From assembly GCA_004294265.1 (NCBI GenBank), contig REAG01000119.1:1-46240 (forward strand): a DNA stretch of 46,240 nt. The letters run 5' to 3'. Position 1 is the first letter of the stretch. Every line of letters begins with the position of its first letter. Source of the stretch: Cytophagales bacterium. Lineage in GTDB: Bacteria; Bacteroidota; Bacteroidia; Cytophagales; UBA9547. Below are positions 18,872 through 37,216 of this stretch, one piece after another. The translations under genes and the position numbers were made by a program. The notes beneath the pieces were generated by a model. It did not search any database. It saw only the letters and a list, made by a program, of their open reading frames with translations, and was not told the DNA's origin.

Positions 18872-18873
18872 TT

Positions 18874-19350: not shown

Positions 19351-19352
19351 TT

Positions 19353-19392
19353 ATAAAAAAACAGATTATTTTAAAATAATCTGTTTTTTTAT
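19353..19392. terminator. Probable bidirectional intrinsic terminator (perfect 40-bp palindrome)
   Basis: ATAAAAAAACAGATTATTTT|AAAATAATCTGTTTTTTTAT between convergent rplQ and the DinB gene; gives a U-tract on both strands. Confidence 0.8.
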
Positions 19393-19445
19393 GTTAATTA
19401 AAATATAAAATACTTTATTTTCTGGTTTTTTATTAAAAATATTTT

Positions 19446-19916: not shown

Positions 19917-19992
19917 TTTAGTATGTGTTTACTTGTGAGTTATATTTTTAAAAATATAATATTTTCTTATTTATAGTTAATTTATTAAATAT

Positions 19993-22023
19993 TTAGACTT
20001 TATTTTTTAATTCTAAAATTAAAGCTGTTCTATTTGTAAGGTATAAACTTAAAATATTATTTTCGCCCTGAAGTTGTGTAATATAATCCATTTTATTATC
20101 AATTCTATTTTGTCCGCCAAAATTTGCGGCATCTGAATTTAATATAATTTTATATACGCCACTTTGTGGAACTTTAAATCGATAATCAAATATAGAATTT
20201 AATGGATTAAAATTAAAAACAAATATTAAGTTATTTCTTTCAAAAATGATCACTTTATTATTTTCATCCATGTTTAATTGAGATGCAGGCAATGATTGTA
20301 TCATTTTTTTGTTTTGACAAAGATGTATCATATCTGCATCAAATTTATTTAAAAAACGATATTTTAATTTTTCATTATCAACCAAGCTCCATTGTCTGCG
20401 TGCATATTTATAACTCCAATTATTTCCTTCTCTTGGGAAATCTATCCATTCTGGATGCCCAAATTCATTTCCAATAAAATTCATGTAACCTTCACCTCCT
20501 AATGAAAGTGTAATTAAACGAATCATTTTGTGTAATGCCATGCCCCTTTCAATTACATAGTCTTTATCTTCTTCGTCCATGTGCCAATACATTTCTTTGT
20601 CCATGAGCCAAAAAGCGAGTGTTTTATCACCTACAAGTGCTTGGTCGTGCGATTCTGCATAGCAAATTGTCTTTTCTTTCCACCTTCTGTTCGTTAAAGT
20701 TGAGTATAATTCATGTATATTCCACTCTTCATCACGAGTATGTTTTAGTAATTTTATCCAAAAGTCAGGTATTCCCATCCCTAATCTATAATCAAATCCA
20801 AGTCCTCCATCATCTGGAGTTCTGCAACCTCCTGGCATTCCACTCATATCCTCGCCTACTGTAAAAGCACCTTTTTTAAGTGAATGTACCAAATCATTGG
20901 CAAGAGTTAGGTACGTTACTGCATCCCAATCGACTTGAGATTTGAAATATTTATCATAATGATCGAAGGCTTCGTAAATTCCGTGATGTTCATAAAGCAT
21001 GGATGTAACGCCATCAAATCTAAATCCATCAAAATGAAATTCTTCTATCCAATATTTGAGGTTAGAAAGTAAAAATTGCGTTACTTCCCATTTTCCATAG
21101 TTAAATAATCTTGAATCCCATTGGTCGTGGTAACCTTTTCCGCCTTCATGAAAATATTGATATTCGGTACCATCTAATTGATTTAATCCCTCATCAAAGT
21201 TTTTTACAGCATGAGAATGGACTATATCCATTATAATTGCAATTCCTAATTTATGAGCTTGATTGACTAAATATTTTAAGTCTTCAGGAGTTCCGAATCG
21301 TGAGCTTGGAGCAAAATAATTTGAAACATGGTATCCAAACGAACCATAATAAGGGTGTTCGGCAATTGCCATCAATTGTATGGTATTGTATCCAAGTTTA
21401 TGAATTCTTGGCAAAACTTTATCGGCAAATTCACTGTAAGTTCCAACATTTTCTTTTTCAAGCGACATTCCAATATGAGCTTCATAAATTAATGGCATTT
21501 TCCCTTGATTTACTTCAAATTCTTTGTCTTCCCACTTAAACTCAGTTTTAGGTGCCCAATGTTGTCCTGAGAAAACTTTCGTATTTTCATCTTGAAAAGC
21601 CCTTTTTATATAAGCTGGAATTCTATCATGGTTTCCATTACTCGATTTTATATGAACTTTTAAAAGACTTTCGTGTTTAAAGGTTGATGAATAATCTGAA
21701 TCTGAAAGAAATATTTCCCAAATACCAGACTCGTTTTTTGTCAAAGGATGTGTTTCTCGGTTCCAATTATTAAAATCTCCGATTAAATAAAGTGCATGAG
21801 CTCCTGAAGCCCATTCTCTATACCAAAATCCTTTTTTATTTTCATCATAATTTATTCCAAAATATTTATATGCATCTGCAAATTGACTTAAACTTCCAGC
21901 ATGATTTTCAAATTCTTTTTTCTTGTCTAAATATCTTTTTTTGCGATTTAAAATATCCTCTTCATAAGGCTCTAACCATGGATCGTCAATTATTAACTGT
22001 ATTTTTGAATTAGAGTTAGACAT
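19993..22023 (-). CDS. glgB: 1,4-alpha-glucan branching enzyme (GH13, eukaryote-like subfamily common in Bacteroidota)
   Basis: IYEAHIG, EHPYYGSFGYHV, DGFRFDGVTSM, GEDMSG, YAESHDQ, GNEFGHPEWIDFP motifs. Confidence 0.93.
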   Translation of the reverse strand: MSNSNSKIQLIIDDPWLEPYEEDILNRKKRYLDKKKEFENHAGSLSQFADAYKYFGINYDENKKGFWYREWASGAHALYLIGDFNNWNRETHPLTKNESGIWEIFLSDSDYSSTFKHESLLKVHIKSSNGNHDRIPAYIKRAFQDENTKVFSGQHWAPKTEFKWEDKEFEVNQGKMPLIYEAHIGMSLEKENVGTYSEFADKVLPRIHKLGYNTIQLMAIAEHPYYGSFGYHVSNYFAPSSRFGTPEDLKYLVNQAHKLGIAIIMDIVHSHAVKNFDEGLNQLDGTEYQYFHEGGKGYHDQWDSRLFNYGKWEVTQFLLSNLKYWIEEFHFDGFRFDGVTSMLYEHHGIYEAFDHYDKYFKSQVDWDAVTYLTLANDLVHSLKKGAFTVGEDMSGMPGGCRTPDDGGLGFDYRLGMGIPDFWIKLLKHTRDEEWNIHELYSTLTNRRWKEKTICYAESHDQALVGDKTLAFWLMDKEMYWHMDEEDKDYVIERGMALHKMIRLITLSLGGEGYMNFIGNEFGHPEWIDFPREGNNWSYKYARRQWSLVDNEKLKYRFLNKFDADMIHLCQNKKMIQSLPASQLNMDENNKVIIFERNNLIFVFNFNPLNSIFDYRFKVPQSGVYKIILNSDAANFGGQNRIDNKMDYITQLQGENNILSLYLTNRTALILELKNKV

Positions 22024-22126
22024 ATATTAATTTGTTTATTATTTTTATTTGTGTACGTTAATTTAAAATTTAAAGATGTTTTTAGAAGAACTATTTTTAA
22101 ATTTGTGAATTTATTTTAATTGCAAT

Positions 22127-22134
22127 CAAATATA
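22127..22134 (-). promoter_or_regulatory. Possible -7 promoter box for glgB
   Basis: TATATTTG on the minus strand about 100 nt upstream of the glgB start; the -33 match is only partial. Confidence 0.4.
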
Positions 22135-22260
22135 ACATAATTAGAATAGTATCAATCAATTTAATTTTATTTGAAAAAGAATTTTTGATTTTTTTTAAGA
22201 AAATTTTAATAAATTTCTTTAAAATTTTTATTTGTTCAATTATAAAGAAATTAGTTGTAT

Positions 22261-23136
22261 TTATTGACGTTCAAACCCTTTGGATACGAATTTTAATACG
22301 TCTGAAATATGGCTTTTCCAATATTGCCAGTTATGATAACCATCTCTTACTCTGTATTCGTGTGGGATTTCTCTTTCGTTGAGTGCAATATGCAAATAAG
22401 CATTTCCTAGAGTAACAAAATCTTTATCGCCACAATCAAAATACCATCGAACTTTATTTAAAGTATCACTTGGCATTGTCTTCATTAGATATATGACGTT
22501 ATATTTTTTAAAATAATCTAATATTTCTGAATCATTTTTTTTCCCTTTGGGCCAAAATGGTTGTTCGTAATTTTCGCCTCTTTCTTTCAAAACTTGTTGG
22601 TCTGTCCAAAAGGCAGCACTCAAACCAGCACAATAACCAAATAAATTCGGATTTTTGAGGCACATCATAAAAGCACCGTAACCACCCATAGATAGCCCTG
22701 AAATAGCTCTGAATTCTTTTTTTTCTCTAATTTTGAATTCTTTTTCAACAGTTGGCATAAACTCTTGCGTAAACATATCCATCCAACGAACTTTATTATC
22801 AAAACTATTTACATACCAATTTAATTCGCCATTTGGCATCACAATAATCATGGGTGTAATTTCTCCGTTTTTAATGGCATTATCTGCCGCTTTATTCACA
22901 CTTCCAAACTGAACCCATGCGGTTTCATCGTCTGAATATCCGTGAAGTAGGTATAAAACGGGATATTTTCTTGAATTATTTATATCATAATCGGGCGGTA
23001 AATAGATTGAATATCCTACATTTTTTCCAAGTATCTTACTCGAAAGTACTTTGCTTTCAATAACTTTTCCGTTCATTTGAGCAATAGATATAATTGAATA
23101 TAATGTTAAAAATAGTGTAATTTTAATTAATTTCAT
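22261..23136 (-). CDS. Exported alpha/beta-hydrolase esterase (CE1-like)
   Basis: Signal peptide ISIA|Q; YLPPDY, YPVLYLLHG, GLSMGG nucleophile elbow, DCGDKD, GYHNW. Confidence 0.9.
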   Translation of the reverse strand: MKLIKITLFLTLYSIISIAQMNGKVIESKVLSSKILGKNVGYSIYLPPDYDINNSRKYPVLYLLHGYSDDETAWVQFGSVNKAADNAIKNGEITPMIIVMPNGELNWYVNSFDNKVRWMDMFTQEFMPTVEKEFKIREKKEFRAISGLSMGGYGAFMMCLKNPNLFGYCAGLSAAFWTDQQVLKERGENYEQPFWPKGKKNDSEILDYFKKYNVIYLMKTMPSDTLNKVRWYFDCGDKDFVTLGNAYLHIALNEREIPHEYRVRDGYHNWQYWKSHISDVLKFVSKGFERQ

Positions 23137-24364
23137 GGATAGATATAGTTATTTTTTGGTAAGAAAGATTATTTATTTTATAAAAGAAGTAAAATATAAA
23201 TGCAGAAATTATCAAAGTATTAGCTCCTGAAATTATTATCAGTCCTATTTTCAAATTAGATGTTAAATATCCAATGATAATTCCTAATGATGTGCAAAAT
23301 AGTTGAAAAATATTAAAAAATAAACCTAACTTATTTATTTTTAAAATATCTACCAAATAACTAAACGGATTGTAAATCATACGAATTATAAAATAGGGCA
23401 TCAAAATCAGCACATAATTAGGTACTTTAGACCATTGAGAGCTTATTAATGGTAGTCCAAAAACAGAAAACATATATATTGAAATGCCAATAAGTATGGA
23501 TATTGAAGAAATTACTTTAAGATTTTTGTTTGAGTATTTTAATAAATCGTTAAAATTGTTTTCGCTGTAAAAAGTGGCAGCTTTTAAATGATAAACTTTA
23601 CTAAAAGTGCTAGATATAAATAAAATTCCAGCTCCTAAGAGTTTTGAAGCCATAAAATAAATGCCAGTTTGAAAGCTTGAAAAGTAAGTTAAAATTAATA
23701 TAGGGATTGAATTATAAGATAAAACATCTATTAATGTGGACGGAAAACCATACCTAAATAATAATTTATAGTTTTCATACATTTTTTTTATTTTAAAATT
23801 AAGTTTAAAATAATCTTTTTCTATAAAATAGCTTTGGCATAAAAACTGTGCAATCAAGGAAAGCAAATAGCCGATAACAAGTCCATTTTCGATTTCATAA
23901 ATTCCAAAAATATATTGTAAAATAAAAGTAGTAATAGAAATAAATCGCCCAATTACTACCCATTTATATTTGTTATTTTTTATAAAATAATATTCAAAAA
24001 TTTGATTGAAAGAAAAAATAATGACACCTAAAGGATAGATTATTAGATGTGTTTTTTGAGATAAAACACAAAAACTAAGTAAAATAACTGAAAATAATAC
24101 TATTAAAGTAAATACAGTTTGAAAAATTTCTTTGCTTTCATTTTTAGATTTTGCCAAAACGATGGCGTACTCAAAATGCAAAGTTGAAATAATTGAAAGT
24201 ATGGAAATCCAACTTAAAAACGAAGAAAATGTACCAAAATTTTCGGGATGATATATTTTAGCGAGATAAAAAGTAGCTAAAAAAGATATGGATTGTACGA
24301 GAATACTTGCTAATGAAAGTCCTCCTAATGTTTTGAAAGTACTTTTATTAACCATATTTTTCAT
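23123..24364 (-). CDS. Oligosaccharide flippase (Wzx-like) polysaccharide biosynthesis protein
   Basis: Many TM segments; YHPENFG and STLHFEYAIVL motifs typical of Wzx-like proteins; overlaps the asnB end. Confidence 0.8.
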   Translation of the reverse strand: MKNMVNKSTFKTLGGLSLASILVQSISFLATFYLAKIYHPENFGTFSSFLSWISILSIISTLHFEYAIVLAKSKNESKEIFQTVFTLIVLFSVILLSFCVLSQKTHLIIYPLGVIIFSFNQIFEYYFIKNNKYKWVVIGRFISITTFILQYIFGIYEIENGLVIGYLLSLIAQFLCQSYFIEKDYFKLNFKIKKMYENYKLLFRYGFPSTLIDVLSYNSIPILILTYFSSFQTGIYFMASKLLGAGILFISSTFSKVYHLKAATFYSENNFNDLLKYSNKNLKVISSISILIGISIYMFSVFGLPLISSQWSKVPNYVLILMPYFIIRMIYNPFSYLVDILKINKLGLFFNIFQLFCTSLGIIIGYLTSNLKIGLIIISGANTLIISAFIFYFFYKINNLSYQKITISIHEIN

Positions 24365-26180
24365 ACATTTTAGTAATACTCATTAAATTAAAAGTTGTTT
24401 TTAAATTTTTTAAAGATTCAAATTTTTTATTTATTTTAATATCAGCTTTTGTATATAATAATTTTGACATATAGTTTGAATTCAATCCTTTTTTGGGTAG
24501 CGCAAAAATTTCAGGTGCTAATTTTTGTTTTGCAAAATTCCTTAAATAAGGTTTTGTTTGGGATGAAATGCTATCAAAAATACTTTCAAAATGGAATAAT
24601 TCTTGCATAAAATGTCCTTCAATGAACGGAGAACGCATTTCTTGCGAAAATTTCATACTTGCATGATCGTTTCGTAAGGCATGATGACAACTAATATAAT
24701 AGTAAATATCAAACAGACTATATTGTTTGAGAATAGGTAAGTGTTTAAAATTTGGCATCATTTGCATTAATTTGTCAATCAAAAACTCAAAAGGGTGTTC
24801 CCAAGATTGACTTTCAGTTTCAAAAATCTTTTTTAAATCATCCCAATCGTACATACTTCGTTTCAAAAATGGAATTATTAAATATCCAAATTTATGAAAG
24901 TCGTTTATTTTATTTTTTTTATTAAATAAAAATGAAAAATTACTAATAATAGGGGTTATTTTAGATGCTAGTTTATAATTTTGTGCAGAGCTGTAATATT
25001 CGTAACCGCCAAATATTTCATCTAATCCTAAACCAGAAAATATTACTTTTGATTGAAGTTGAGAAGCTTTTTTTGATAAAAAATATGCGGGTTCTGGAGC
25101 TTCATTTGGTTGGTCCTCATAAGTGAGTAAAGTTTCCAAATCGAAATCTTCAAAATTAGTGGTTTCCAGTTTTAAACCTGCATAAATAGCATTGGTAAAT
25201 GCTGAATTTAATTCATTTTCTTTGTCATTCTTATCGCCAAGAGTAATGGCAATTATCTGATTATCAAACTTTTGTAAATAATAAGCCAATAATCCTGAGT
25301 CAATACCTCCGCTAAGCATGAGTGTTTTTTGAGGTGTACCTGTGAGGTGCGATTGAATGGTTTCTGAAATAATATTTTCAAAATTACTGGTATTTAATCG
25401 TTCTTTTTTTGCTTCATATTTCCAATTCCAAAAAGGTGTTATTTGGGTTTTAAAATTTCTAATATTAATATCAAGTTTATGTCCAGGTTCTAAACTTTTT
25501 ATATTTTTATAAATGGTTAAAGGTGATGGACAAGTACCTAAATACATGCTAAATGCCAATGCTTTTGAATCTAATATTCCTAAACCAGATTGGAGAGGAA
25601 ATAAACCTTTTATTTCTGATGAAAAAATGAATTTATTACCTAAAATAGCATAGAAAAATGGCTTTTGTCCTGTTGCATCTCGCCATGATTTGATATTTCC
25701 ATTTGAAATATCAAAAACTACAATCGAAAACATACCTTTTAAATGATTAATAAAGTCATCTCCTAAAATTAGATAAAGTTTAAAACCTAATTCTGTGTCG
25801 GTTTCCGATACAAACAAATCATTTTTAGAAAAGTATTTTTCTTTTAATAATTTATAGTTGTAAATCTCTCCAACCATCATAAATAGTATATTGGTTTGCG
25901 AGTCATAAAATGGTTGCATGCCATTATTTGATTCATCTACGATTGAAAGTCGTGAAAATCCAATCCAATTTTTTGATTCTCGATTGTGTTGATGATCAGG
26001 ATATTTACTTTTGGAAAATGCAGATGAAAGCTCTGTAGTTCTAAAAAAAGGTGTGTTGTTTTCTGAAATTCCTACTAATATTTGGTCATCTGGACCTCTG
26101 TGTTTAATTTCAGATAGTGACTTTTCAATAAACGAAAAATTTAAGGGTTCGATTGAGAAAACACCTGAGAATCCGCACAT
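24348..26180 (-). CDS. asnB: Asparagine synthase (glutamine-hydrolysing) family amidotransferase
   Basis: N-terminal MCG, HRGPD, RLSIVD, GEIYNY, FSSEIK, LSGGIDS, DEIFGGY motifs; probably acts on surface polysaccharide given its neighbour. Confidence 0.9.
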   Translation of the reverse strand: MCGFSGVFSIEPLNFSFIEKSLSEIKHRGPDDQILVGISENNTPFFRTTELSSAFSKSKYPDHQHNRESKNWIGFSRLSIVDESNNGMQPFYDSQTNILFMMVGEIYNYKLLKEKYFSKNDLFVSETDTELGFKLYLILGDDFINHLKGMFSIVVFDISNGNIKSWRDATGQKPFFYAILGNKFIFSSEIKGLFPLQSGLGILDSKALAFSMYLGTCPSPLTIYKNIKSLEPGHKLDINIRNFKTQITPFWNWKYEAKKERLNTSNFENIISETIQSHLTGTPQKTLMLSGGIDSGLLAYYLQKFDNQIIAITLGDKNDKENELNSAFTNAIYAGLKLETTNFEDFDLETLLTYEDQPNEAPEPAYFLSKKASQLQSKVIFSGLGLDEIFGGYEYYSSAQNYKLASKITPIISNFSFLFNKKNKINDFHKFGYLIIPFLKRSMYDWDDLKKIFETESQSWEHPFEFLIDKLMQMMPNFKHLPILKQYSLFDIYYYISCHHALRNDHASMKFSQEMRSPFIEGHFMQELFHFESIFDSISSQTKPYLRNFAKQKLAPEIFALPKKGLNSNYMSKLLYTKADIKINKKFESLKNLKTTFNLMSITKMYEKYG

Positions 26181-26713
26181 TTTGGTATTTTAATTATTAA
26201 AATATTAAAAATAGATTAATTTATTATATTTTTATACTGGAGTCCGACAATAAACTATTCTAATAACAACTCTAAGAATAGTAAATTTTTAAAAATATAG
26301 GTATAAATTATAAACACCTATACTTAATGTTTCGTTTTTATACAAAAATTAACATTATGTAGCAAATATCTAAAGAATTTAATTCTGCTGAACTAATTAT
26401 TGGATAATTATTTTTCATTTCGCTCTTGATATTTTTACAAAAGTATTTTTTCTTACATTATCTGGTATTGGGTTTTAAAAAATGACTTCAAAAGTTTATT
26501 TTATATTGAGTCCAATAATTATTTTCTATTAAATTTTAAGAAAGACCCTTCTTATTTACCCAAATGGTAAAAGTTATAAAGGAACTTGTAATTATTAATT
26601 AGACTTTATACATTTATTTGTTTATTGCTTTTTAAATTTCCATTTTTATCAATTTTAATTCAATTTTCTATCCTAAAAAAAAAAATGTAATTTAGCATCC
26701 AAATTATTTTATA

Positions 26714-29700
26714 ATGAGCGAATACAAACCACAAGAGATAGAGAAGAAATGGCAAAAAGTATGGAAGGATAACCAAACTTTCAAAACCGAATTTCCATCA
26801 AAAAAGCCTAAATATTATGTTTTAGATATGTTTCCCTATCCCTCAGGTGCAGGTTTGCATGTGGGGCATCCGCTTGGATATATCGCTACCGATATTGTAG
26901 CTCGTTATAAAAGACTCAAAGGATACAATGTACTTCATCCGATGGGATACGATTCTTTCGGTCTTCCTGCCGAACAGTATGCGGTGCAAACTGGGCAGCA
27001 TCCTGCTATCACTACCGAAAATAATATTGCTCGTTATCATGAGCAATTAGATAATATAGGATTCAGTTACGATTGGAGCCGAGAAGTTAGAACCTCAAAT
27101 CCTGATTTTTACAAATGGACACAATGGATTTTTGTCAAAATATTCAACTATTGGTACAATAAAGAAAGCGACAAAGCCGAACCTATCGAAATACTTTACC
27201 AAAAGTTTGCTGAAAATGGAAATGCAAAAGTAAAAGCCGTTTGTGATGAGGATATTAAATCCTTTACAGCTCAAGAATGGAATGCCTATTCAGAAGAACA
27301 AAAACATGAAATCTCGCTTAAATACAGATTAGCATATCTTTCTAATACTTTTGTGAATTGGTGTCCAGGTTTAGGTACTGTACTTGCCAATGAAGAAGTA
27401 AAAGATGGCGTTTCCGAACGTGGTGGATTTCCTGTCGAACGTAAAGAAATGGCTCAATGGAGTATGCGAATTACTGCCTATGCCGAACGTTTGTTGAGTG
27501 ATTTAGACGGCTTAGATTGGTCGGATTCTATCAAAGAACAACAACGCTATTGGATTGGAAAGTCAAAAGGATGTATGCTTACTTTTCAAATTGCAGATCT
27601 TTCAAGTTTTAAAAATTTGGAAGGTCTAAAAAACGCGACAGCAACTCCCCCTTCGGGGGGTGGGGGGCTTAGTGTTTTCACCACACGTGTAGATACGATA
27701 TATGGTGTAACCTATCTTACGCTTGCTCCAGAGCATGAATTGGTAGATAAAATCACTACGCCAGAGCAAAAAGCTAAGGTAGATGCTTATGTACATTATG
27801 CTAAAAATAAATCCGAATTAGATAGACAAGCCGATGTGAAAACTGTAACCGGAGAATTTACAGGTGCTTATGCCATCAATCCTTTGAACAATGCTTTGAT
27901 TCCTATTTGGATAGGCGAATATGTGTTGGCTGGCTATGGAACAGGAGCTGTAATGGCTGTACCAAGCTCTGATACTAGAGATTATGCTTTTGCCAAACAT
28001 TTCAATCTTCCTATTATTAATGTACAAGAAGGAGAAAAAACAGACATTACTAAAGAAGATTTTGACCCCAAAGCGGGCACAATGATAAATTCTGATTTCT
28101 TAAATGGAATGGATGTGAAATCTGCTCTTGAAGCCATGACCAAACGTGTAGAGGAACTTGGAGTGGGATATGGAAAAGTGAATTTTAAAATAAGAGATAG
28201 CATTTTTAGCCGTCAACGCTATTGGGGAGAACCTATTCCGGTCTATTTCAAAAATGGATTGCCTTACACTTTAGATGAGTCGCAGCTTCCGTTGGAATTA
28301 CCTAAAATAGATGAATATAAGCCAACTGCGAACGGAGAGCCTCCATTGGCTAGAGCGAAGAATTGGGTAGCCAGTTCCCCTCCCCTTGGGGAGGGGATAG
28401 GGGTGGGGTTAAATTCACAATTACAAAACGCAAATTTACCATCTTGGCAAACCACAGATGCTATTAAGTGGAAAGCTATTAAAGAAAAAGCAAGGGAATT
28501 GCGAAAAAATCAAACGGATGCCGAACAGACTTTGTGGTATGCTTTAAGAGGTGAGCAACTTGGTGTTAAGTTCAGACGTCAGCAGGTTATTGATGTGTTT
28601 ATTGCAGATTTTGTTAATTTGAATACTAAATTAATCATAGAAGTTGATGGAGGAATTCATCTCGATTCAGATGTAAAAAAATATGATGAATATCGTACCG
28701 AAGTTTTACGGAATTTGGGATATACGGTAGTTCGATTTACAAATGAAGAAGTAGAAAATGATCTTGATAGTGTTGTAGAAAAGATCAGAAGTAAAATTTC
28801 TGAGTTGCCCAAATTGAACCCAATTTTTGCAAATTCTCAAAAGATCCCACCCCTAACCCCTCCCCAAGGGGAGGGGAACTACCCCCTCGAAACCTCCACC
28901 ATGCCAGGTTGGGCAGGTTCTTCTTGGTATTTTTTAAGGTATATGGATGCCAAAAACGAATCTGAATTTGCTTCAAAGGATGCTTTAGACTATTGGCAAG
29001 ATGTAGATTTGTATTTGGGAGGAAGCGAACATGCCACAGGACATTTGCTTTATTCTCGTTTTTGGCATAAATTTTTATACGATTTAGGGTATGTAAAAAC
29101 CAAAGAATATGCTAAGAAACTGATTAATCAAGGGATGATTCAGGGTAGAAGCAATTTAGTTTATCGTATTAATGGAGAGAATAAATTCGTTTCTTTTGGT
29201 TTAAAAGCTAAATATGAAACAACTGAATTTAATGTTGATGTAAATATTGTAGAAAATGATATTCTTGATATTGAAAAATTCAAAAACTGGAGAGAAGACT
29301 TAAAAGATGCTCAGTTTATTCTTGAAGATAAAGAAGGTAAAGCCCTCTCCTTCGGGGAGGGTTTGGGTGGGGCTTACATTTGCGGACATCAAGTCGAAAA
29401 AATGTCTAAATCGTTGTATAACGTAGTCAATCCCGATGATGTAGTTTCAAAATATGGAGCAGATACTTTACGTATGTACGAAATGTTTTTGGGTCCACTC
29501 GAACTTTCAAAACCTTGGAGTACAATTAGCATCAGCGGAGTGAGTCGCTTTTTAAGAAATGTATGGAAAATGTTTTACGATGAAAGTGGCAAACTTTTGC
29601 TTACCGATGAAGCTCCAAACGACAAGGAATTAAAAGTATTACACAAAACCATCAAAAAAGTAGAAGAAGATATTGAGCGTTTTTCATTTAATACTTCGGT

Positions 29701-30082
29701 GAGTACTTTTATGGTATGTGTAAACGAACTTTCAGATTTGAAATGCCACAAAAGAACTATTTTGAGCGATTTTCTAATCATTCTAGCACCTTATGCCCCA
29801 CACATAGCCGAAGAATTGTGGGAAGCGATGGGCAACAAAAACGGAATTTCTTATGCTACATTCCCAAAATATGATGAAAAATATTTGGTAGAATCTAGTT
29901 TTGAATATCCAATTTCTATCAATGGAAAAGTACGTCATAAAATGAATTTCCCTGCCAATATGGACTTAAAAGAAGTTGAAAATCAGGCTTTAGCGAGTGC
30001 TGAAATCATCAAATGGCTCGAAGGAAAAGCTCCTAAAAAAGTAATTGTAGTTCCTAATAAAATTGTGAATGTGGTTTTGTAG
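26714..30082 (+). CDS. leuS: Leucine--tRNA ligase enlarged by an in-frame DUF559 domain and short palindromic inserts
   Basis: [14 protein letters not shown] (HIGH), FTTRVDT and [11 protein letters not shown] (editing domain), [22 protein letters not shown]; single open frame of 1122 aa. Confidence 0.97.
27595..27627. repeat. 33-nt REP-like palindrome in frame within leuS (encodes [11 protein letters not shown])
   Basis: AGATCTTTCAAGTTTT-A-AAAATTTGGAAGGTCT; 13 Watson-Crick and 3 G-T pairs. Confidence 0.8.
27645..27669. repeat. Short GC-rich hairpin with G tail in frame within leuS (encodes TPPSGGGGL)
   Basis: CTCCCCCTTCGGGGGGTGGGGGGCT, extreme GC outlier in an AT-rich window. Confidence 0.7.
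28373..28880 (+). mobile_element. Putative mobile cassette: DUF559 endonuclease domain between 35-bp inverted repeats, in frame in leuS
   Basis: Left arm 28373-28407 and right arm 28846-28880 are reverse complements at 34/35 nt; 28481-28786 encodes [40 protein letters not shown]...GY.V.RF.N; mobility is inferred. Confidence 0.75.
29342..29374. repeat. 33-nt hairpin with G tail in frame within leuS (encodes [11 protein letters not shown])
   Basis: GCCCTCTCC-TTC-GGGGAGGG-TTTGGGTGGGGCT; same layout as the DUF559-flanking arms. Confidence 0.8.
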
Positions 30083-30090
30083 AATGATTG

Positions 30091-30122
30091 TTTGTTATTT
30101 TTAATAGAAATAATTAAATTTG
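30091..30122 (+). promoter_or_regulatory. Bacteroidota promoter for the 30145 gene
   Basis: TTTG (30091-30094), 20-nt spacer, TAAATTTG (30115-30122). Confidence 0.7.
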
Positions 30123-30144
30123 AGTTTGAAAGTAAAAAAATATA

Positions 30145-30699
30145 ATGGCTGAATTAACTTACGAGGGTGTATTAGAACTTTTTGCTGAAACTAGCAGGAA
30201 AATGGCAGAAAGTGATAAAAAAATTGATAAAATAAATCGTGAACTCAGCAAAAAACTATCTGAGTTTGGAGATACTCTTGGTAGATTTGCAGAAGAGCAA
30301 GTACGAGCAGATATTTTAAATCGATTTGATAATTGGGGAATTCCTGTTCACTCAATTACAAACCATTTTGAACAGAGAGATATGCAAAATAATTTTGCCT
30401 ATGAAATTGATATTTTAATTTATAATTCAAAATATGTTGTTGCGATTGAAGTCAAAAATACATTAAAAAAAGATGACGTAGATTTACATTTGGAAAGGAT
30501 GAAAAAAATTCAAGCTATTCCGTTTCCAGATTCAAAAGGAAAAATTCTTTTGGCAGGCGTTGCAGGTATGATTGTGGGCAATGGCGTTGATCAATATGCT
30601 GAATCAAACGGACTTTTTGTCTTAAAACCAAGCGGAGAAACAATAAAAATAGCTAATAATAAAAAAACTTTCAAACCTAGAGAGTGGGAAGTAAAGTAA
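30145..30699 (+). CDS. Coiled-coil + PD-(D/E)XK nuclease-fold protein (DUF3782-like)
   Basis: Helical N-terminus, then LGRFAEE, EIDILI and AIEVK, an E..D..ExK pattern. Confidence 0.65.
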   Translation: MAELTYEGVLELFAETSRKMAESDKKIDKINRELSKKLSEFGDTLGRFAEEQVRADILNRFDNWGIPVHSITNHFEQRDMQNNFAYEIDILIYNSKYVVAIEVKNTLKKDDVDLHLERMKKIQAIPFPDSKGKILLAGVAGMIVGNGVDQYAESNGLFVLKPSGETIKIANNKKTFKPREWEVK

Positions 30700-30724
30700 T
30701 AAATATGTTTTTTTATTAAAAACA

Positions 30725-31870
30725 TTATAACCTCGCTTTATACTCCTCGTAACCAAAAGATTTGATAAGTTCAAAAGTATTATTTTCTTTCCAAATTCCA
30801 ATATTTGGCAAATTTACGCCATTAAAAGTAGTGGTTTTTACCATGGTGTAGTGCATCATATCTTCAAAAACGATGATATCGCCTTCTTTTAGAGGTTTTT
30901 TGAATGAATATGGTCCCATATAATCACCAGCAAGGCAGGTTAATCCACCCATTAAATACACATTTTCTCCTTTATTATTACTTTCTGCATCGGTTATTTT
31001 TGCTGTATAGGGCATTTCTATACAATCGGGCATGTGAGCTGAAACTGAACAATCCAAAATGGCAACTTCTTTTCCGCCACTTTCCACTACATCCAAAACT
31101 TTGGAAACCAAATAACCCGTTTGCCAGCCAAATGCTGAGCCTGGCTCTAAAATAATTTCTTTGATATTAGGATACTTTTTATAAACTGATTGTATAAACT
31201 CAATTAAATGATTGTGATCGTAGCCTTTTTTGGTCATTAAATGTCCGCCACCCATATTGAACCACGATATTTGAGTAAGTAAATGCGAAAAGTTTTTTTC
31301 AATTTCTAACCAAGTTCTTTCTAATGCATAACTGTCTTTTTCACATAAATTATGCATGTGTAAACCTTCAATTCCTTCAGGTAAGTTTTTGTCAAAATGT
31401 TGAATAGTTACACCCAATCTCGAACCAGGAATGCACGGATTGTAAAGATCAGTTTCTACTTCCGAATATTCAGGATTGATACGAATGGCACAAGATATTT
31501 TTTTGGTATTTTGCGATATTTTACCTTTAAATTTATTCCATTGAGCAATAGAATTAAATGTAATATGTCCACAATGTTGCATCATTTCTTCAAATTCTTT
31601 GTCGAGATAAGCTACATTATAGGCATGAACTTCTCCACCAAATTCCAATGCTCCTAAACGAGCTTCGTTGAGCGAACTTGCCGTAGTGCCAGGCACATAA
31701 TGCTTTACAAGTCCAAAAGAGCTATACATCGAAAATCCTTTGAGTGCTAAAATTATTTTTGCACCCGATTTTTGAGCAATCGATTGAATTAGTTCTAGGT
31801 TTTTTCTCAACAATTTTTCGTCTAACAAAAAGCAAGGCGAAGGAATGGTTTCAAAAGGAATTTTAGACAT
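30725..31870 (-). CDS. nspC: Carboxynorspermidine decarboxylase
   Basis: LALKGF, TASSLNEA, RINPEYS, YNPC..GSRLG, NMGGGH, HMPDCIEMPY, CLAGD, HYTMVKTTTFNG motifs. Confidence 0.95.
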   Translation of the reverse strand: MSKIPFETIPSPCFLLDEKLLRKNLELIQSIAQKSGAKIILALKGFSMYSSFGLVKHYVPGTTASSLNEARLGALEFGGEVHAYNVAYLDKEFEEMMQHCGHITFNSIAQWNKFKGKISQNTKKISCAIRINPEYSEVETDLYNPCIPGSRLGVTIQHFDKNLPEGIEGLHMHNLCEKDSYALERTWLEIEKNFSHLLTQISWFNMGGGHLMTKKGYDHNHLIEFIQSVYKKYPNIKEIILEPGSAFGWQTGYLVSKVLDVVESGGKEVAILDCSVSAHMPDCIEMPYTAKITDAESNNKGENVYLMGGLTCLAGDYMGPYSFKKPLKEGDIIVFEDMMHYTMVKTTTFNGVNLPNIGIWKENNTFELIKSFGYEEYKARL

Positions 31871-32056
31871 TTTTATCTTTAATTTATTAATGGTTTTAAA
31901 ACTTAATTTATAGAATATTTTGTTTTGGGTAATTTAAAATTGATTTTTGAAGGATAATGTAAATCGTAAGTTTAAATTCAATTGAAATTATATGATTTTT
32001 AAATATTTCGTAATATTCATTTTTTAAATATTTTATGGCATAACAAAACAGTTCAA

Positions 32057-32149
32057 TTAAAAACTTTTATTATTTAATGTTAGCAATGGAGCTTGCTTAA
32101 TTCTATTTATTACGAAATCTAAGTCTCGGATGTAAATGGTATTATAATT
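32057..32149 (-). pseudogene. Possible 3' remnant of an FkbM-like gene
   Basis: Startless frame ...NTIYIRDLDFVINRIKQAPLLTLNNKSF* resembles C-termini I recall from some FkbM proteins; unverified. Confidence 0.3.
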
Positions 32150-32150
32150 T

Positions 32151-32957
32151 TTAATTTTTTGCTCGACAAAAAATCATGTGTGGGATAAAACCCATTTCAT
32201 TTAATTCTATTTGATTTTTATACCACCGTTTTGGAATTGGAAAATCACCTACATAAGCAGCTTCATAATTATATTTCTCTAAAAATAATCCTGACGATAA
32301 AAAAGCCTCTTGACCATGTAATTCGAGCAATAATATAGGTTTTTTATTTTTAAAAAGTTTATCTCCATTTTGCAAAGCAAACACCTCTGCTGATTCCAAG
32401 TCGAATTTTATAAAATCAGGTTCTTTTGCAATTTTTAAAGTAATTATTTCATCAACCCCTTTACAATCAACCTCAATAACTTCAACTTCTGAGTCATATT
32501 TTTTACTAAAATCAAGTGGACCATTAGAACCACCCAAATTATTTACAAACTTAATTTTTGAATTTTCAGTTCCTATTGCAAGATTAATTATATTTACATT
32601 ATGCCAATTGTTTAATTGAGGCAATACCTTAACTGTATTATAATTTTTGATAGATGCCTCAAAAGTAAATATTTCGCCAGTTTCGCCTAAGCATTTTCTA
32701 AAAACCGATGTATAATAACCAATATACGCACCACCGTCCCACACTACCATTCCTGGTTTAATATATTTTGAAAAGTCAATCCTTTCAAAAATCCACTTAT
32801 CATAAGTCCCCAAAAAATATGAACCTTCAATTTTTAAATTAATTCTTAGTTTTGTACCTTTAGCCTGACCTGTTAATACATATAAATCAGAATACCCTTT
32901 TTTACTAGAAAGAATTTTAAATAAAATATTTTTTACTAGTTCTTTGATTTTTTTCAT
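32151..32957 (-). CDS. FkbM family SAM-dependent methyltransferase
   Basis: VWDGGAYIGYY, TFEAS, PDFIKFDLESAE motifs. Confidence 0.85.
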   Translation of the reverse strand: MKKIKELVKNILFKILSSKKGYSDLYVLTGQAKGTKLRINLKIEGSYFLGTYDKWIFERIDFSKYIKPGMVVWDGGAYIGYYTSVFRKCLGETGEIFTFEASIKNYNTVKVLPQLNNWHNVNIINLAIGTENSKIKFVNNLGGSNGPLDFSKKYDSEVEVIEVDCKGVDEIITLKIAKEPDFIKFDLESAEVFALQNGDKLFKNKKPILLLELHGQEAFLSSGLFLEKYNYEAAYVGDFPIPKRWYKNQIELNEMGFIPHMIFCRAKN

Positions 32958-32968
32958 GTTTGTGATAA

Positions 32969-34489
32969 TTAGATGTTTTTTTTAAAATAATTTACTAATC
33001 TACAACCAAATGCTAAAGCGGTTAAGGTTGGGTTTGAATGAGAACTTGTAGGGAAAACTGCTGTACTACAAACAAAAATATTATCAAAATCCCATAATTT
33101 AAGATTTGTATCAACTACACTATTTTCTGAGTGATTACCTAATTTAGCTCCACCAATATGATGATTCACCCCTGATAACAAATCGTTTATATGGTTCTCG
33201 CCTTCAATTTTTGAATGAATATTAACAATTCCTAAATTATTTTTTTTAAAATAATCTTGGATTGCTTTACACACGATAAATAAGGTTTTTTTACTTTGAG
33301 TTGAAATATCCCAGTGAATTAAAGCTTTACGTAGTGAATATTCGTCTAGTTCATTGGATAGAGAAATATAACTATTTTCGGACGCTTCTTGTTCCATCAT
33401 CAAAGTTAGCATGGCTTTAGCCTCTGGTTTATATAAAAATCCATGTCTAACTAAACTCAAGATGGTTTTACTAATAAATCTTAAGTTCAATAAAATGGAA
33501 GTTAATTTATTAAATTTAAAAGTTTTGAAAATTGATTTTATCTCAAGATAAGGATTAAATAGTTTGGAATTATATTTGAAAAGTAAACTAACAGAAGCAT
33601 TTAAAATTTCTTCTTTTTTTTGAAAATTTTCTGATAAACTTAATCTTAGTGAGTATTTACGGAAATTGAAAATATGGGTATTGAAAATTCGTTGAATATT
33701 ATATTTGTTTGTGGGTTCTAATTCTCCAAATTCAATACAGGGATGCTCCATAAAACATTTTCCAAGCCATTTGGATTTCGAAAGTTTAGAAAGTAGAAGT
33801 AATCGAACTGTTTCTATGCCTCCACAAGCTAAAATAAGTTTAACTAATGGCAATTCAAATTCTTGCTTTTTATCGTTTGATATTTTTATAGAAATAGCCT
33901 TTTTTTCGTAGTGAAAAATTGACAAAACATGTGCATTATAATAAACATCTACTTTTTTATCCAAATAGTTTTTGTATAATTTATAAAAATTAGGCTGTTT
34001 TGCCCATTTGGACACATGATAATCAAAGTCTTCACTTTTGTATTTATATTTTAACAAACCCAATTTTGAAAGCATATTATCATGATATCCCCAATTATCT
34101 ATCTTCATGAATTCATTTGCTTCATCATAATATTTTTCAATATCTTGATAATTAATATCCCATCCGCTATTTTCTAGCCAAGGTCTTGCTTGGAAATCAA
34201 AATCACTAAAAGGCAAAGATTGACCACCCCAAGCAATAGTAGTTCCACCAACGGCACGTTTTCTGCCCCAAACTGCCGTTTCTAAAATCTTATTTGTATG
34301 GACAACTTCATTCAGTTTTTGCTTTTTATCATTTTCATAAAAATTCCCACTTTCTAAAACGCATACACGATGACCTTCTTTGGAAAGTTTTACAGCTAAT
34401 AAAATCCCCATTGCTCCTGCTCCAATAATCGTAAAATCATAATCTGATTGAGGAAATTCTAATATGTTATTACAATTTATAAATGGCAT
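32969..34489 (-). CDS. GMC family FAD-dependent oxidoreductase
   Basis: IIGAGAMG, VGGTTIAWGG, LACGGIETVRLLL, FMEHP, HHIGG, VFPTSSHSNPTLT motifs. Confidence 0.9.
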   Translation of the reverse strand: MPFINCNNILEFPQSDYDFTIIGAGAMGILLAVKLSKEGHRVCVLESGNFYENDKKQKLNEVVHTNKILETAVWGRKRAVGGTTIAWGGQSLPFSDFDFQARPWLENSGWDINYQDIEKYYDEANEFMKIDNWGYHDNMLSKLGLLKYKYKSEDFDYHVSKWAKQPNFYKLYKNYLDKKVDVYYNAHVLSIFHYEKKAISIKISNDKKQEFELPLVKLILACGGIETVRLLLLSKLSKSKWLGKCFMEHPCIEFGELEPTNKYNIQRIFNTHIFNFRKYSLRLSLSENFQKKEEILNASVSLLFKYNSKLFNPYLEIKSIFKTFKFNKLTSILLNLRFISKTILSLVRHGFLYKPEAKAMLTLMMEQEASENSYISLSNELDEYSLRKALIHWDISTQSKKTLFIVCKAIQDYFKKNNLGIVNIHSKIEGENHINDLLSGVNHHIGGAKLGNHSENSVVDTNLKLWDFDNIFVCSTAVFPTSSHSNPTLTALAFGCRLVNYFKKNI

Positions 34490-34495
34490 TTTTGA

Positions 34496-35335
34496 CTATT
34501 TACAATAAAAATTAGACGCAAATTTTAGGTTATTAACTATATTAATACTATTAGTAGAAGAAAACAAGATTTTTGATTCTGGGAATTTCATTAAATGATT
34601 TGCAATTAAATAACCGCCTTTTTGGTTTTCAGCTATTGTGGGGAAAGTGTTTTTATTGAAATCTTTAAATATGCTATGATGTATATGTAATTTGGTTGGA
34701 TTAGATGAATATATACTGTCTGAATTTATTTGAAGGCTGTTTTCATATTGTAAAATGTCCCATTTTACTATTTCTTCTTTAGGAATTGATACTAAATTTT
34801 GATGACAAACCCCCATACCTAGTTTTTTAATTAGACCTTTTGCTTTCATATCAAATAAAAAATGATTAGCTTCTTCTGTTAAAAAATGAGGAGTTGCTTC
34901 ATGTAATAAATAATTGTCTATATAATCCGTTTGCAATCTTTTTAATGAATTATTAAAATCAAATTCTACTTGATTTTTAGAAATAGAGCGATAATTAACC
35001 TTTTTAAACTCTTGTAATTTATTTACAGAAGCATTACCTTTAGTTTTAATTTTCTTTTTTAAATAATTAAGAGGTAATGCCAATAAAGATGGCAAACTTG
35101 GCGAGTTTATTTCACCCAAACCAAATTTGGTAGTAATAGTAATATCTTCTCTCTTTTTATTTTTTAAAAACTTTCCAAGTATTATTTCAGAATACCCTTT
35201 TCCATAAATAGGTGCAGTATCAAAAAAAGCAATCCCATTTTCATAAACATTATTTAATACACTTAAAGCACTGTTTAAGCTGGGCATAATAGTTAAAGCA
35301 ACACATCCAAAACCAATTCTGTTTTCAATACTCAT
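34496..35335 (-). CDS. Aldo/keto reductase
   Basis: IGFGC, FDTAPIYGKGYSE, ITTKFG, SLKRLQTDYID..LLHE motifs. Confidence 0.9.
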   Translation of the reverse strand: MSIENRIGFGCVALTIMPSLNSALSVLNNVYENGIAFFDTAPIYGKGYSEIILGKFLKNKKREDITITTKFGLGEINSPSLPSLLALPLNYLKKKIKTKGNASVNKLQEFKKVNYRSISKNQVEFDFNNSLKRLQTDYIDNYLLHEATPHFLTEEANHFLFDMKAKGLIKKLGMGVCHQNLVSIPKEEIVKWDILQYENSLQINSDSIYSSNPTKLHIHHSIFKDFNKNTFPTIAENQKGGYLIANHLMKFPESKILFSSTNSINIVNNLKFASNFYCK

Positions 35336-35337
35336 TA

Positions 35338-35560
35338 TTATAAAGTTTTATTGATTATTTCTATTAACTTCTTACTTTCCAATTCCCAATTGTATTTTTC
35401 TTGTGCCAATCTCAAAGATTCTCTTTTACATGTATTTATAGAATCTTTATTGTTATAAAAATCATTTATTATTTCAACTAGTTTTTCAATATCTCCAATT
35501 GGAAATGACATATCTATGGAAGGATTTCCGATAAAAGTAGTTTTTATTCTGCTTTTTAAA
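35338..35560 (-). pseudogene. 3' remnant of a GT4 glycosyltransferase
   Basis: Frame with no credible gene start reading ...NPSIDMSFPIGDIEKLVEII...RESLRLAQEKYNWELESKKLIEIINKTL*, a typical GT-B C-terminus; the stop sits 2 nt before the next ATG; upstream limit approximate. Confidence 0.65.
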
Positions 35561-35571
35561 ATAGCTTATAG

Positions 35572-36684
35572 TTAAGACTTATAATTATCAAATAGTTCTA
35601 ATTCAACTTTTTTACTTAATGAAGTCATGTCTATGCTATTTAATGCAGCCTTGTGAGAAATATCAATTAATTCTGAATTAGATTTTTCATTACTACAATA
35701 TTTGATAATTAATTCTATAATCTCCTGTGGATTGTTTGAACTTATTAAACTCGTATCATTTAAAAATTCATAGCCTCTTAATCCTATTTTGGTGCTGATT
35801 ACGGGCAATCCAAAGGATAATGCGAAACCGAGTTTTGTGCTAACGCCTCTAGAATAGTAAAATAATAAGTTCAAAAAAGCAGACCAAGTTTTTACTTCAT
35901 TTATTACCTCATTGTCGGATAGATAGCCTTTGTAGTTTACAAAACTATATTTCGATGAAAAATATTGACCTTTAATAACTGGTTTGCCTATAAGACAAAA
36001 TTCTATGTTCGTATTTTTACTTGCTTCAATTGACTCACAAATTTTTTCTATGGCATCTTTGTTGGGCAAATGACTTAAATCCCCAATAAAACCTACCTTA
36101 TTTAATGATGGATTTGTATCAATAAAATTAGCTTCTATGGTTCGTGGTATATAAATAACTTTTTTTGCATTTATCCATTTTTCAATTTCTGCTTCTATTG
36201 GAGATACTGTAAAAACAAAATCTAAAAAGTTTTTTCTAGATTGTGATTCTTTTAACAAAATCGATCCCAATTTATATGCATGTAAAATATTACTAAAATT
36301 ATTTCTACTAATTTCATGAAGATAGTCTCCCGATTCATTGCCATGTGAGAGTAGTATGATTTTAAGAGTAGGAAACAATATCTTTAATCTTTGAGCTATT
36401 GGAATAAGATTGCTCATATTTAATGCGATCCAATCAATTTTATTTGAATTGATTTTTTGTATTATTTCATCAATATTACTATTATCATAGTGCAAATAGG
36501 CATCAATACCTAGTTTGATTTTTATTCTAGATAATAATGAAATTTCATTTTTTATTCCGATTACTTCTACGTTGAAAATTAAACATAAAAGTTTTAAATA
36601 ATCACTGGTACATAGTTTTACTCCACCGCTGAAATTAGAGTCTTCTAAAAAAAGTTTATCCGAAATAAATAATAAATTTTTCAA
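35572..36684 (-). CDS. Glycosyltransferase (GT4-like)
   Basis: TTG start; VGFIGDLSHLPN, GVSTKL, FGLPVIST..GLRG motifs. Confidence 0.8.
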   Translation of the reverse strand: MKNLLFISDKLFLEDSNFSGGVKLCTSDYLKLLCLIFNVEVIGIKNEISLLSRIKIKLGIDAYLHYDNSNIDEIIQKINSNKIDWIALNMSNLIPIAQRLKILFPTLKIILLSHGNESGDYLHEISRNNFSNILHAYKLGSILLKESQSRKNFLDFVFTVSPIEAEIEKWINAKKVIYIPRTIEANFIDTNPSLNKVGFIGDLSHLPNKDAIEKICESIEASKNTNIEFCLIGKPVIKGQYFSSKYSFVNYKGYLSDNEVINEVKTWSAFLNLLFYYSRGVSTKLGFALSFGLPVISTKIGLRGYEFLNDTSLISSNNPQEIIELIIKYCSNEKSNSELIDISHKAALNSIDMTSLSKKVELELFDNYKS

Positions 36685-36687
36685 TGA

Positions 36688-37215: not shown

Positions 37216-37216
37216 A

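Follow-up and report, generated by a model that had tools for sequence, protein, structure and literature searches.

A DUF559 nuclease inserted in frame in the leucyl-tRNA synthetase of a Cytophagales bacterium, probably a homing-like cassette with palindromic arms

How does a nuclease domain come to lie in the middle of an essential enzyme, and how is the gene still read as a single frame? The question is raised by leuS, the gene for leucyl-tRNA synthetase (LeuS), in a Cytophagales bacterium (GenBank assembly GCA_004294265.1, called G000 below). The stretch analysed, which we call the window, comprises the 46,240 nt of contig REAG01000119.1, read on the forward strand. Its leuS contains a DUF559 domain enclosed by two inverted, GC-rich palindromic arms. 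The original prediction for this locus was a mobile element in which a Vsr-like nuclease spreads its own palindromic ends and leaves solo arms behind. Comparison with other genomes largely bears out this interpretation, which we rate as partly supported: insertion, patchiness and association with the arms are found, but for the spread itself a homing-type process fits at least as well as one directed by the arms. On balance we consider it probable that the leuS insert is one copy of a homing-endonuclease-like selfish cassette, translated along with its host as a passenger domain and in time reduced to its arms.

The two arms of the insert are 35 nt long, complementary at 34 of 35 positions (97%) and separated by 438 nt (Table 1). 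Each of them is composed of a 9-bp GC hairpin, CCCCTCCCC-NN-GGGGAGGGG, a 3-nt spacer and the G-rich tail GGGGTGGGG. The flanking repeats of this insert align with a score of 63; the best of 20 shuffles reaches 21, and control flanks taken 700 nt away score 16. The enclosed segment matches the Pfam family DUF559 (PF04480) with E 9.6e-34 and 116 bits, over profile positions 3–108 of 109. A scan of the whole genome gives it 121 bits; the curated cut-off is 20.6 bits. Ordinary LeuS domains are found on both sides (Pfam tRNA-synt_1, editing and anticodon-binding), and the frame is uninterrupted throughout. The nuclease begins with a 20-aa N-terminal extension (WQTTxxxKWKxLKE), which is common to other embedded copies. 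This agrees with the original prediction, which had described a complete domain in frame between the arms, with the LeuS sequence stopping before it and resuming after it. No transposase, intein motif or clear target-site duplication had been visible at that stage; Pfam finds no transposase domain inside the insert, and comparison of the leuS junctions shows no target-site duplication. No direct repeat was seen at the junctions of copies L001, L002, L003 and L005 either; in copy L004 composite arms, with host codons included, form a direct repeat roughly 100 nt long. An insertion sequence or a miniature inverted-repeat transposable element was rejected on these two grounds, the lack of a transposase in the insert and of a target-site duplication.

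The relatives tell us that the segment was added to LeuS. We compared 41 genomes: G000 and 40 relatives. Twenty-nine of their LeuS sequences span this position, called site 2 below. The DUF559 cassette is found at exactly the same position in five of them; the other 24 are empty and read ...NWKY(KG)xYxxELSTMPGW.... Compared with the empty alleles, the insert extends from about 28370 to 28879, 170 codons. The filled ones are G000, G001 and G002, which belong to one genus, G009 and G014. Filled and empty alleles occur even within one genus: G009 is filled and G017 empty, G014 is filled and G003 and G020 are empty. The empty alleles that the original prediction proposed to look for are therefore present. 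The ileS cassette of G000 behaves in the same way: it is absent from the congeners G001 and G002 and is found at the same site in G009, G011, G014 and G016, from four other genera. Judged from these alignments, the leuS DUF559 segment is an insertion with a patchy distribution, placed in a loop of LeuS. Occupancy of the same site, a patchy distribution and empty alleles in close relatives, which are the marks of a homing gene, are found both for leuS site 2 and for ileS.

The arms at site 2 are less constant than the position. Their tails point inward in G000, G002 and G009. In G001 they point outward and the left arm is tandemly duplicated; in G014 a direct repeat (about 100 nt) of a composite arm lies on both sides. 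The nucleases of G001 and G000 are 47% identical, in proteins whose N-terminal halves are 91% identical, and their junction sequences are common despite the difference in arms: TGGGTAGCC on the left and TACCCCCTCGAAACCTCCACC on the right.

The cassette is not limited to leuS. The G000 assembly has 3.4 Mb in 383 contigs with 29.8% G+C, so that GC-rich sequences of 20–35 nt are conspicuous in it; the closest named database proteins come from Bacteroidota metagenome-assembled genomes. A tblastn search with the insert finds three DUF559 copies in this genome, in leuS, ileS and metH, all of them in frame between inverted GC-rich hairpin arms. The ileS copy lies in an open frame of 1385 aa (contig C74), the metH copy in one of 1644 aa (contig C326). 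Each copy has an arm type of its own: CCCCTCCCC in leuS, CCCCTCTCC in ileS and CCCCC-TTCG-GGGGG in metH. In the 41 genomes PF04480 has 37 matches, distributed over 19 genomes: the open frame is 288 aa or longer for 22 and 111–181 aa long for 14, and one match is a fragment. The original prediction suggested that DUF559 genes in general be examined for flanking inverted arms. A flanking inverted-repeat score of at least 36 is reached by 21 of the 33 copies with usable flanks; all 28 displaced controls stay below it, and the shuffles score 32 at most. Stand-alone DUF559 genes are likewise flanked, with arms of up to 132 nt.

A sample of 201 genomes from the whole phylum gave DUF559 in 105, and about 37 of 150 listed matches lie in open frames that span 400 aa or more. 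Twenty embedded copies across the phylum were analysed: seven reach a score of at least 36, and about 15, by a rough reading, score higher than any of their own 20 shuffles. Nearly all of the twenty have Pro/Gly-rich peptides, for example PLSLGEGQGVRS, on both sides. A database search limited to longer proteins gave 184 proteins at E<=1e-10 among 496 candidates. The best 120 of the 184 are LeuS (65), MetH (40), IleS (2), ValS (2) and other proteins (11), which include RecG- and Lhr-type helicases, DegT aminotransferases, HsdM, type ISP enzymes and RNase H. Fusions of DUF559 with synthetases, as had been suspected, are thus already in the databases, where they are named simply as synthetases: 'leucine--tRNA ligase [Taibaiella soli]' or 'valine--tRNA ligase [Dysgonomonas sp. 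25]'. In the literature searched, which left out most subscription journals, neither DUF559 cassettes with palindromic arms nor in-frame DUF559 inserts were found described. The family is widespread and apparently undescribed. MetH of G000 (contig C326:889-5820, locus L039) has solo arms in addition to its cassette. It also has an AT-rich insert of about 230 aa (residues ~1210–1435), which splits the activation domain (Met_synt_B12 profile positions 1–78, then 80–273) and has no match to any Pfam family.

The sites themselves are informative. In public sequences LeuS has at least three cassette sites, near residues 316, 558 and 880 in G000 numbering. G000 has a solo arm at site 1, the full cassette at site 2 and a solo arm at site 3. 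The public sequences P0005, P0003, P0011 and P0091 have a full cassette at site 1, and P0005 has another one at site 3. The original prediction had taken the arm at 29342 as the remains of an element: it is real, and it has a companion that had escaped notice, the site 1 arm, whose sequence CTCCCCC-TTC-GGGGGG-T-GGGGGG is of a different type from the cassette arms. In ValS, the solo and doublet sites of G000 (residues ~216 and 490–515, called V1 and V2) coincide with DUF559 sites of P0071 and P0006. Solo and doublet elements thus occupy LeuS sites 1 and 3 and ValS V1 and V2, the positions of full cassettes in other bacteria, as expected if the solo arms are leavings. Three congeners have different arm types at identical valS sites, or a doublet where another has a solo arm: these sites therefore turn over.

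The LeuS sites lie close to invariant residues. The site 1 insert ends about five residues before T323, T324 and R325, columns that are invariant in 32 LeuS. At site 2 the end is five residues before the invariant E726 and T729–G732, which include M730, P731 and G732. At site 3 it is about 8–9 residues before the invariant K896, M897 and K899 of the KMSKS motif. The metH cassette ends just before the GDVHDIG motif, which binds B12. Positions just upstream of invariant residues are typical of homing elements. They are not what a pure tolerance filter predicts.

Arms without a nuclease are abundant in G000. A scan with a three-part motif, which is conservative and misses type C arms (stricter hairpin and 9-mer scans undercounted), found 34 elements, six of which are the cassettes' own arms. 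Twenty-three are in frame inside 11 open reading frames (ORFs) of at least 300 aa: four in ValS, three each in LeuS and MetH, two in IleS, and the others in PurL, an FAD-oxidase/Fe-S protein, four restriction-modification/methylase genes and one NMT1-like protein. Five pairs are doublets with tails outward and spacers of 15–108 nt, which is the geometry of the metH cassette minus its nuclease. Some doublets from different genomes and sites (G000 C98:12494-12630; G001 valS V1, loci L071/L072) share the inner sequence ..GCTTACGC..AAATGCGACAGCA.., which suggests a defined non-autonomous element rather than random remnants.

The number of arms goes together with the presence of DUF559, another relation that the original prediction had proposed to check. 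We counted the pattern CCCTCC-N2-10-GGAGGG, which represents one arm class only; its reversed control gives 0–3 matches per genome. The median is 6 in the 19 genomes with DUF559 (13 of them have at least four matches) and 0 in the 22 without it (two have at least four, most have 0–1). G000 has 26. The Mann-Whitney test gives p 7e-6, or 4e-5 without the genus of the window, values which are overstated because related genomes are not independent. Stable presence of DUF559 across the clade without repeats, or lack of association between DUF559 genes and repeats, had been named beforehand as outcomes that would refute the prediction; both are contradicted by these data. Two further observations concern the arms. 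In G026, which belongs to the same order, the pattern is matched 92 times across the genome; most of the matches listed have a 3-nt loop (ACG/CGT), and many are paired 60–330 nt apart, like the doublets of repetitive extragenic palindromes (REPs) known as REPINs. Its stand-alone DUF559 gene G026:C18 (locus L068) has this arm type upstream. In G000, four large ORFs with in-frame solo arms, on contigs C52, C108, C117 and C145, code for restriction-modification/methylase enzymes (N6_N4_Mtase, type ISP, Eco57I/MmeI-like); enzymes of this kind in relatives also host full DUF559 cassettes (L058, L060).

The nuclease seems to be maintained. In 24 embedded and stand-alone copies the invariant columns are T36, E39, W43, R57, Q58, D67, F68, E78, D80, G81, H84, D93, L100, G104 and F110. 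Among them D67, E78, D80, G81, H84 and D93 (D...ExDGxxH...D) are presumably the catalytic residues. By sequence, the nearest solved structure is PDB 3hrl_A, an 'Endonuclease-Like Protein' (E 1.3e-17, query residues 36–135). Between G000 and G002 the core of the leuS nuclease has 25 synonymous and 7 non-synonymous differences, with a ratio of non-synonymous to synonymous rates (dN/dS) of 0.059. The metH copy has 0.066 (G000/G002) and a copy in a restriction-modification gene 0.057 (G004/G028); host LeuS segments have 0.012–0.05. By these ratios the nuclease is under strong purifying selection.

A tree of 80 nucleases (117 columns), built by a quick method and weakly resolved, places the embedded copies in one large group (support 89, not starred), with two clades of stand-alone genes apart. 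The site labels are clustered on it: 28 label changes are needed, against a mean of 56.6 after shuffling, and none of 200 shuffles reaches this value. The copy of the window falls in a starred clade of LeuS site 2 (support 97) with G002, G009, P0007 and P0008 (L001, L002 and L003 with both P sequences). The nucleases of G001 and G014 lie outside this clade.

The insert is most probably translated, since no second leuS was found in G000, where the remaining LeuS matches are paralogous synthetases only, and since there is no intein or intron signature. An intein has a Hint domain, Cys, Ser or Thr as first residue, and a terminal His-Asn followed by Cys, Ser or Thr. Pfam finds no intein or Hint family in LeuS at E<=0.01; five LeuS inserts start with A, A, Y, Y and A, and end with ...GEGN|Y, ...GEGK|Y, ...GEGS|F, ...GA|SY and ...VRHQ|Y. 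An intein was rejected on both counts. A group I or II intron or another known RNA was also rejected: a comparison of 27400–29600 with Rfam gave nothing at a gathering score, only four weak matches to unrelated families, and the frame has no interruption. RNA folding predicts a long-range pairing of the two arms that encloses the insert (z −7.4). Such pairing is expected of any inverted repeat of 35 nt and is no evidence of excision, so removal at the RNA level was discarded. Taken singly, the arm hairpins do not exceed composition-matched shuffles in stability.

An AlphaFold2 model of the full LeuS, from an alignment of 32 rows, has a mean predicted local distance difference test (pLDDT) of 75.9 and seven segments below 50. 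Four of these are stretches encoded by the arms (300–316, 557–583, 702–720 and 882–884); the others (38–46, 49–51 and 79–86) belong to the N-terminal catalytic region. Residues 583–697 are modelled as an alpha/beta domain of helices and strands. In this model the Pro/Gly stretches of the arms are thus low-confidence parts. Runs of C or G give Pro/Gly-rich peptides with few stops in either orientation, and we infer that the arms are built-in linkers. Bacteroidia ribosomes do not recognise Shine-Dalgarno sequences, according to the parts of PMC10798248 and PMC13000453 available to us; arms rich in GGAGG could therefore be harmless in this class.

Table 1. Features of leuS in the window (positions in nt of the 46,240-nt stretch)
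Feature	Position	Strand	Evidence and remarks
leuS	26714..30082	+	ORF and Pfam; 1122 aa with three in-frame GC-rich inserts; sole leuS found in the genome
Solo arm, type B (CCCCC-TTC-GGGGG-N-GGGGGG)	27645..27667	+	In frame, TPPSGGGG; LeuS site 1; in low-confidence model segment 300-316
Left arm	28373-28407	+	CCCCTCCCC-TT-GGGGAGGGG, ATA, GGGGTGGGG; translated; in low-confidence model segment 557-583
Nuclease ORF, no own start or stop codon	28409..28845	+	DUF559 core 28478-28798 = LeuS aa 589-695
Right arm	28846..28880	-	Reverse complement of left arm, 34/35; translated; in low-confidence model segment 702-720
Solo arm, type A/C	29342..29372	+	CCCTCTCC-TTCG-GGGAGGG-TTT-GGGTGGGG, in frame; LeuS site 3, about 8 codons upstream of KMSKS

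Some side features of leuS should be mentioned. In type A arms, the left leuS arm included, the purine strand contains four tracts of four G, 1–3 nt apart, and the G tail forms a mirror repeat with the stem's 3' half. By its letters GGGGAGGGG-ATA-GGGGTGGGG fits the G-quadruplex consensus. The leucine-specific domain is highly variable in LeuS of the relatives, with unrelated inserts: nt 2401–2700 of leuS (window 29114–29413) are 53–63% identical between G000 and G002, against 89–95% for the rest of the gene. In G001 and G002 the genes that flank leuS (window 18001–38000) are on different contigs; either the neighbourhoods differ or the assemblies are too fragmented.

How would such an insert spread and persist? 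In the cycle that we favour, the cassette is an ORF of about 145 codons for a Vsr/DUF559-type PD-(D/E)XK nuclease, without start or stop codon of its own, between GC-rich palindromic arms. The whole insert would be translated as a passenger domain of a LeuS that is still functional. The nuclease would cut alleles free of the insert, or sites near the conserved motif; recombinational repair would then copy the cassette in, as in homing, and now and then the cassette would move to a new site. The arms would act as flexible linkers free of stop codons, and may also provide short homology or structure for the repair. Once the nuclease is lost, doublets and later solo arms would be left, of which the arms at 27645 and 29342 would be examples. 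The alleles of the genus may themselves be exchanged: leuS is 89–95% identical in G000 and G002 over most of its length, ileS is 72–77% identical, and other segments of the window show 66–86% (mostly 72–82%) with the congeners, on other contigs. This is consistent with lateral exchange of the leuS allele that carries the insert.

Several points weigh against this cycle. The lateral exchange is drawn from one stretch of 20 kb only. The approximately unbiased (AU) test does not reject a single clade for all ten site 2 copies (p 0.384), so that independent invasion of site 2 is not proven by the tree, and one ancient insertion followed by several precise losses is possible. The synonymous rate (dS) is 0.35 in the insert and 0.26–0.57 in the host flanks between G000 and G002; there was therefore no recent invasion on this branch, and the cassette predates the allele exchange. 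An insert in an essential enzyme needs to fold well, and this need, rather than nuclease activity, could be the cause of the purifying selection. The nuclease copies switch sites: in P0006 the copies at two sites of one protein are sisters (support 96), and the pairs of P0004 and P0005 are near each other, which indicates that new sites are colonised. Eleven of the 34 elements lie outside long ORFs, and solo arms in intergenic DNA are not explained by homing alone. The leuS geometry, with tails inward, differs from that of the majority, with tails outward, and no model yet explains it. Arm-pattern matches occur in two genomes without DUF559, four in G012 and five in G038. Finally, in four metagenome contig sets with the stretch, all from one microbial-mat study and three of them probably its source, neither an empty-site allele nor an inverted form was seen; for the cycle this decides neither way, and contigs drop rare variants. 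No RNA data set was listed with the stretch. The joints listed in these contigs have sides of 27–45 letters on or near repeated arms and derive from other copies of the arms, and the extra depth at four arm bins reflects only that arms are repeated in the samples.

The main rival to a homing-like cycle is transposition directed by the arms, as in REPs and their associated tyrosine transposases (RAYTs). DUF559 would cut its own hairpin arms and mobilise both the arms and itself, and survival in frame would be a filter of selection. Many features agree with such a process. DUF559 genes, including stand-alone ones, lie between inverted hairpin arms, and arm counts follow their presence. Each nuclease of G000 has its own arm type, and the types A and B that were censused have further copies in the genome; arm types are also common to nuclease clades. 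The doublets resemble REPINs, the G026 genome combines 92 arm matches, many of them paired, with a stand-alone DUF559 of the same arm type, and sister copies are found at two sites of one protein. On the other hand we know of no strand-transfer or ligation chemistry for a lone PD-(D/E)XK nuclease, and no target-site duplication is seen. The 23 in-frame elements are gathered in just 11 ORFs, at sites common to phyla-level relatives and beside invariant motifs, a concentration which argues for specificity for the target rather than for the arm. Arm type and orientation differ among copies at a single site. Variable orientation, number and type of arms at one site, together with sites upstream of invariant motifs, fit a homing-type spread at least as well, and we consider the arm-directed process unlikely. 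A true RAYT is not involved: the two Y1_Tnp-like matches of G000 (29.8 and 18.8 bits) have no GC-rich arms next to them. The first one (C164:1700-2400, RAYT/IS200-type) has an internal TGA and its own inverted repeat, GCGCAGCGATTGTCGAAC / GTTCGACAATCGCTGCGC, unrelated to the arms.

The arms might instead be independent small palindromes, moved by another enzyme, by replication slippage or by repair, which build up at breaks or in permissive loops; DUF559 would be cargo trapped between two of them or a mere maker of the breaks where they land. G000 has 34 elements (six of them cassette arms) and 26 pattern matches for only three nucleases, G012 and G038 have matches without any DUF559, and the number and orientation of arms around DUF559 vary, with tandem, direct and inverted arrangements. 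Yet no other candidate enzyme is linked to the arms, the Y1_Tnp-like matches included; the association with DUF559 is strong and repeated across families of the phylum, and genomes without DUF559 mostly have 0–1 matches. We regard this explanation as improbable. Still less probable is a domesticated fusion, a fixed DUF559 domain inherited vertically which serves LeuS or the cell, with the arms as low-complexity linkers. Purifying selection as strong as on the host, co-divergence of insert and leuS between G000 and G002 and a monophyly of the site 2 nucleases that is not rejected speak for it. The domain is absent, however, in 24 of 29 relatives, congeners of carriers included, and the cassette is also found in MetH, IleS, ValS, helicases and restriction-modification enzymes. 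The arms are repeats at the DNA level that also occur between genes, and G001 has a nuclease only 47% identical, with different arms, in a LeuS that is 91% identical. Programmed inversion of the segment by its 35-nt repeat (phase variation) is very improbable: it would break the sole leuS, no invertase is found among the ORFs of 25000–32000 and no inverted form in the metagenome contig sets, and the enrichment of 'DUF559 domain-containing protein' among predicted inversion targets (odds ratio 14.3), given in the part of a bacterial survey seen by us (PMC9881135), is more simply explained because DUF559 genes are flanked by inverted arms. That survey, in the part consulted, is the nearest trace in the literature: DUF559 proteins enriched among genes with inverted repeats.

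A wider reading goes beyond the homing-like cycle. A Vsr-like nuclease and its cognate arms might form a distinct class of mobile element, an autonomous/non-autonomous pair comparable to RAYT and REPIN but built for ORFs, which would be remodelling essential enzymes across the phylum. The arms would be free of stops in most frames, would give Pro/Gly linkers either way, and their GGAGG runs would be tolerated by ribosomes blind to Shine-Dalgarno sequences. They may also be landing pads, the nuclease ORF being copied into any matching doublet. We put this forward tentatively.

Several known systems resemble the cassette in part. The palindromic elements of Rickettsia are not known to have an associated nuclease gene; they belong to another phylum, differ in sequence and are compared here by description only. 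Yeast mitochondrial genes that are rich in AT, such as var1, have optional GC clusters. These are palindromic, some of them are in frame in a protein gene, and they spread by gene conversion. They are similar in being GC-rich palindromes in an AT-rich genome, but they are organellar, much shorter and have no nuclease between clusters. Mobile restriction-modification units with long inverted repeats (PMC2853133, as far as the part at hand describes them) also have genes of the restriction-endonuclease fold bounded by inverted repeats. They differ in being whole gene units, placed between or into genes, not passenger domains, and have no family of short hairpin arms. REPs and REPINs with their RAYTs are closer: an enzyme gene lies between short inverted palindromes which are also dispersed as singlets and doublets, with an abundance tied to the enzyme (in outline from parts of PMC3116915 and PMC3733652, with details as generally known). 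The same arrangement is found here, except that the enzyme is a PD-(D/E)XK nuclease and not an HUH Y1 transposase; REPs are also extragenic, whereas 23 of our 34 elements are in frame inside long ORFs.

The closest likeness of the nuclease is to the Vsr-like EDxHD homing endonucleases such as I-Bth0305I, which are placed in one PD-(D/E)XK clade with Vsr and DUF559 in the portions of PMC3424549 and PMC9403480 that we could consult. They too are selfish nuclease genes at conserved sites of conserved genes, with a patchy distribution. The link of the cassette to them is this clade grouping; the sole PDB match is 3hrl. Inteins are in-frame inserts in host proteins (PMC2677866, seen in part), and the cassette is similar to them in this respect. 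As it has no intron, intein or Hint domain, the DUF559 insert is kept in the mature mRNA and, one may presume, in the protein. Endonucleases of introns and inteins have neither palindromic GC-rich arms nor dispersed copies without nuclease; the DUF559 cassette has both.

Named carriers exist in culture: Taibaiella soli for LeuS and Dysgonomonas sp. 25 for ValS. The inserts mark sites in LeuS, IleS, ValS and MetH that are naturally permissive, and the nucleases are compact (about 115 aa) and may have long, site-specific targets. Many synthetases, methionine synthases and restriction-modification enzymes that are over-long and oddly annotated in databases are explained by the cassette. It also provides a testable function for DUF559, a family that is matched in 105 of the 201 Bacteroidota genomes sampled and mentioned by just 25 papers of the literature searched. 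If the homing-like cycle is true, it would be a third route, besides introns and inteins, by which a nuclease gene can reside in an essential gene and spare the host: in frame, with its own linkers, as an extra domain.

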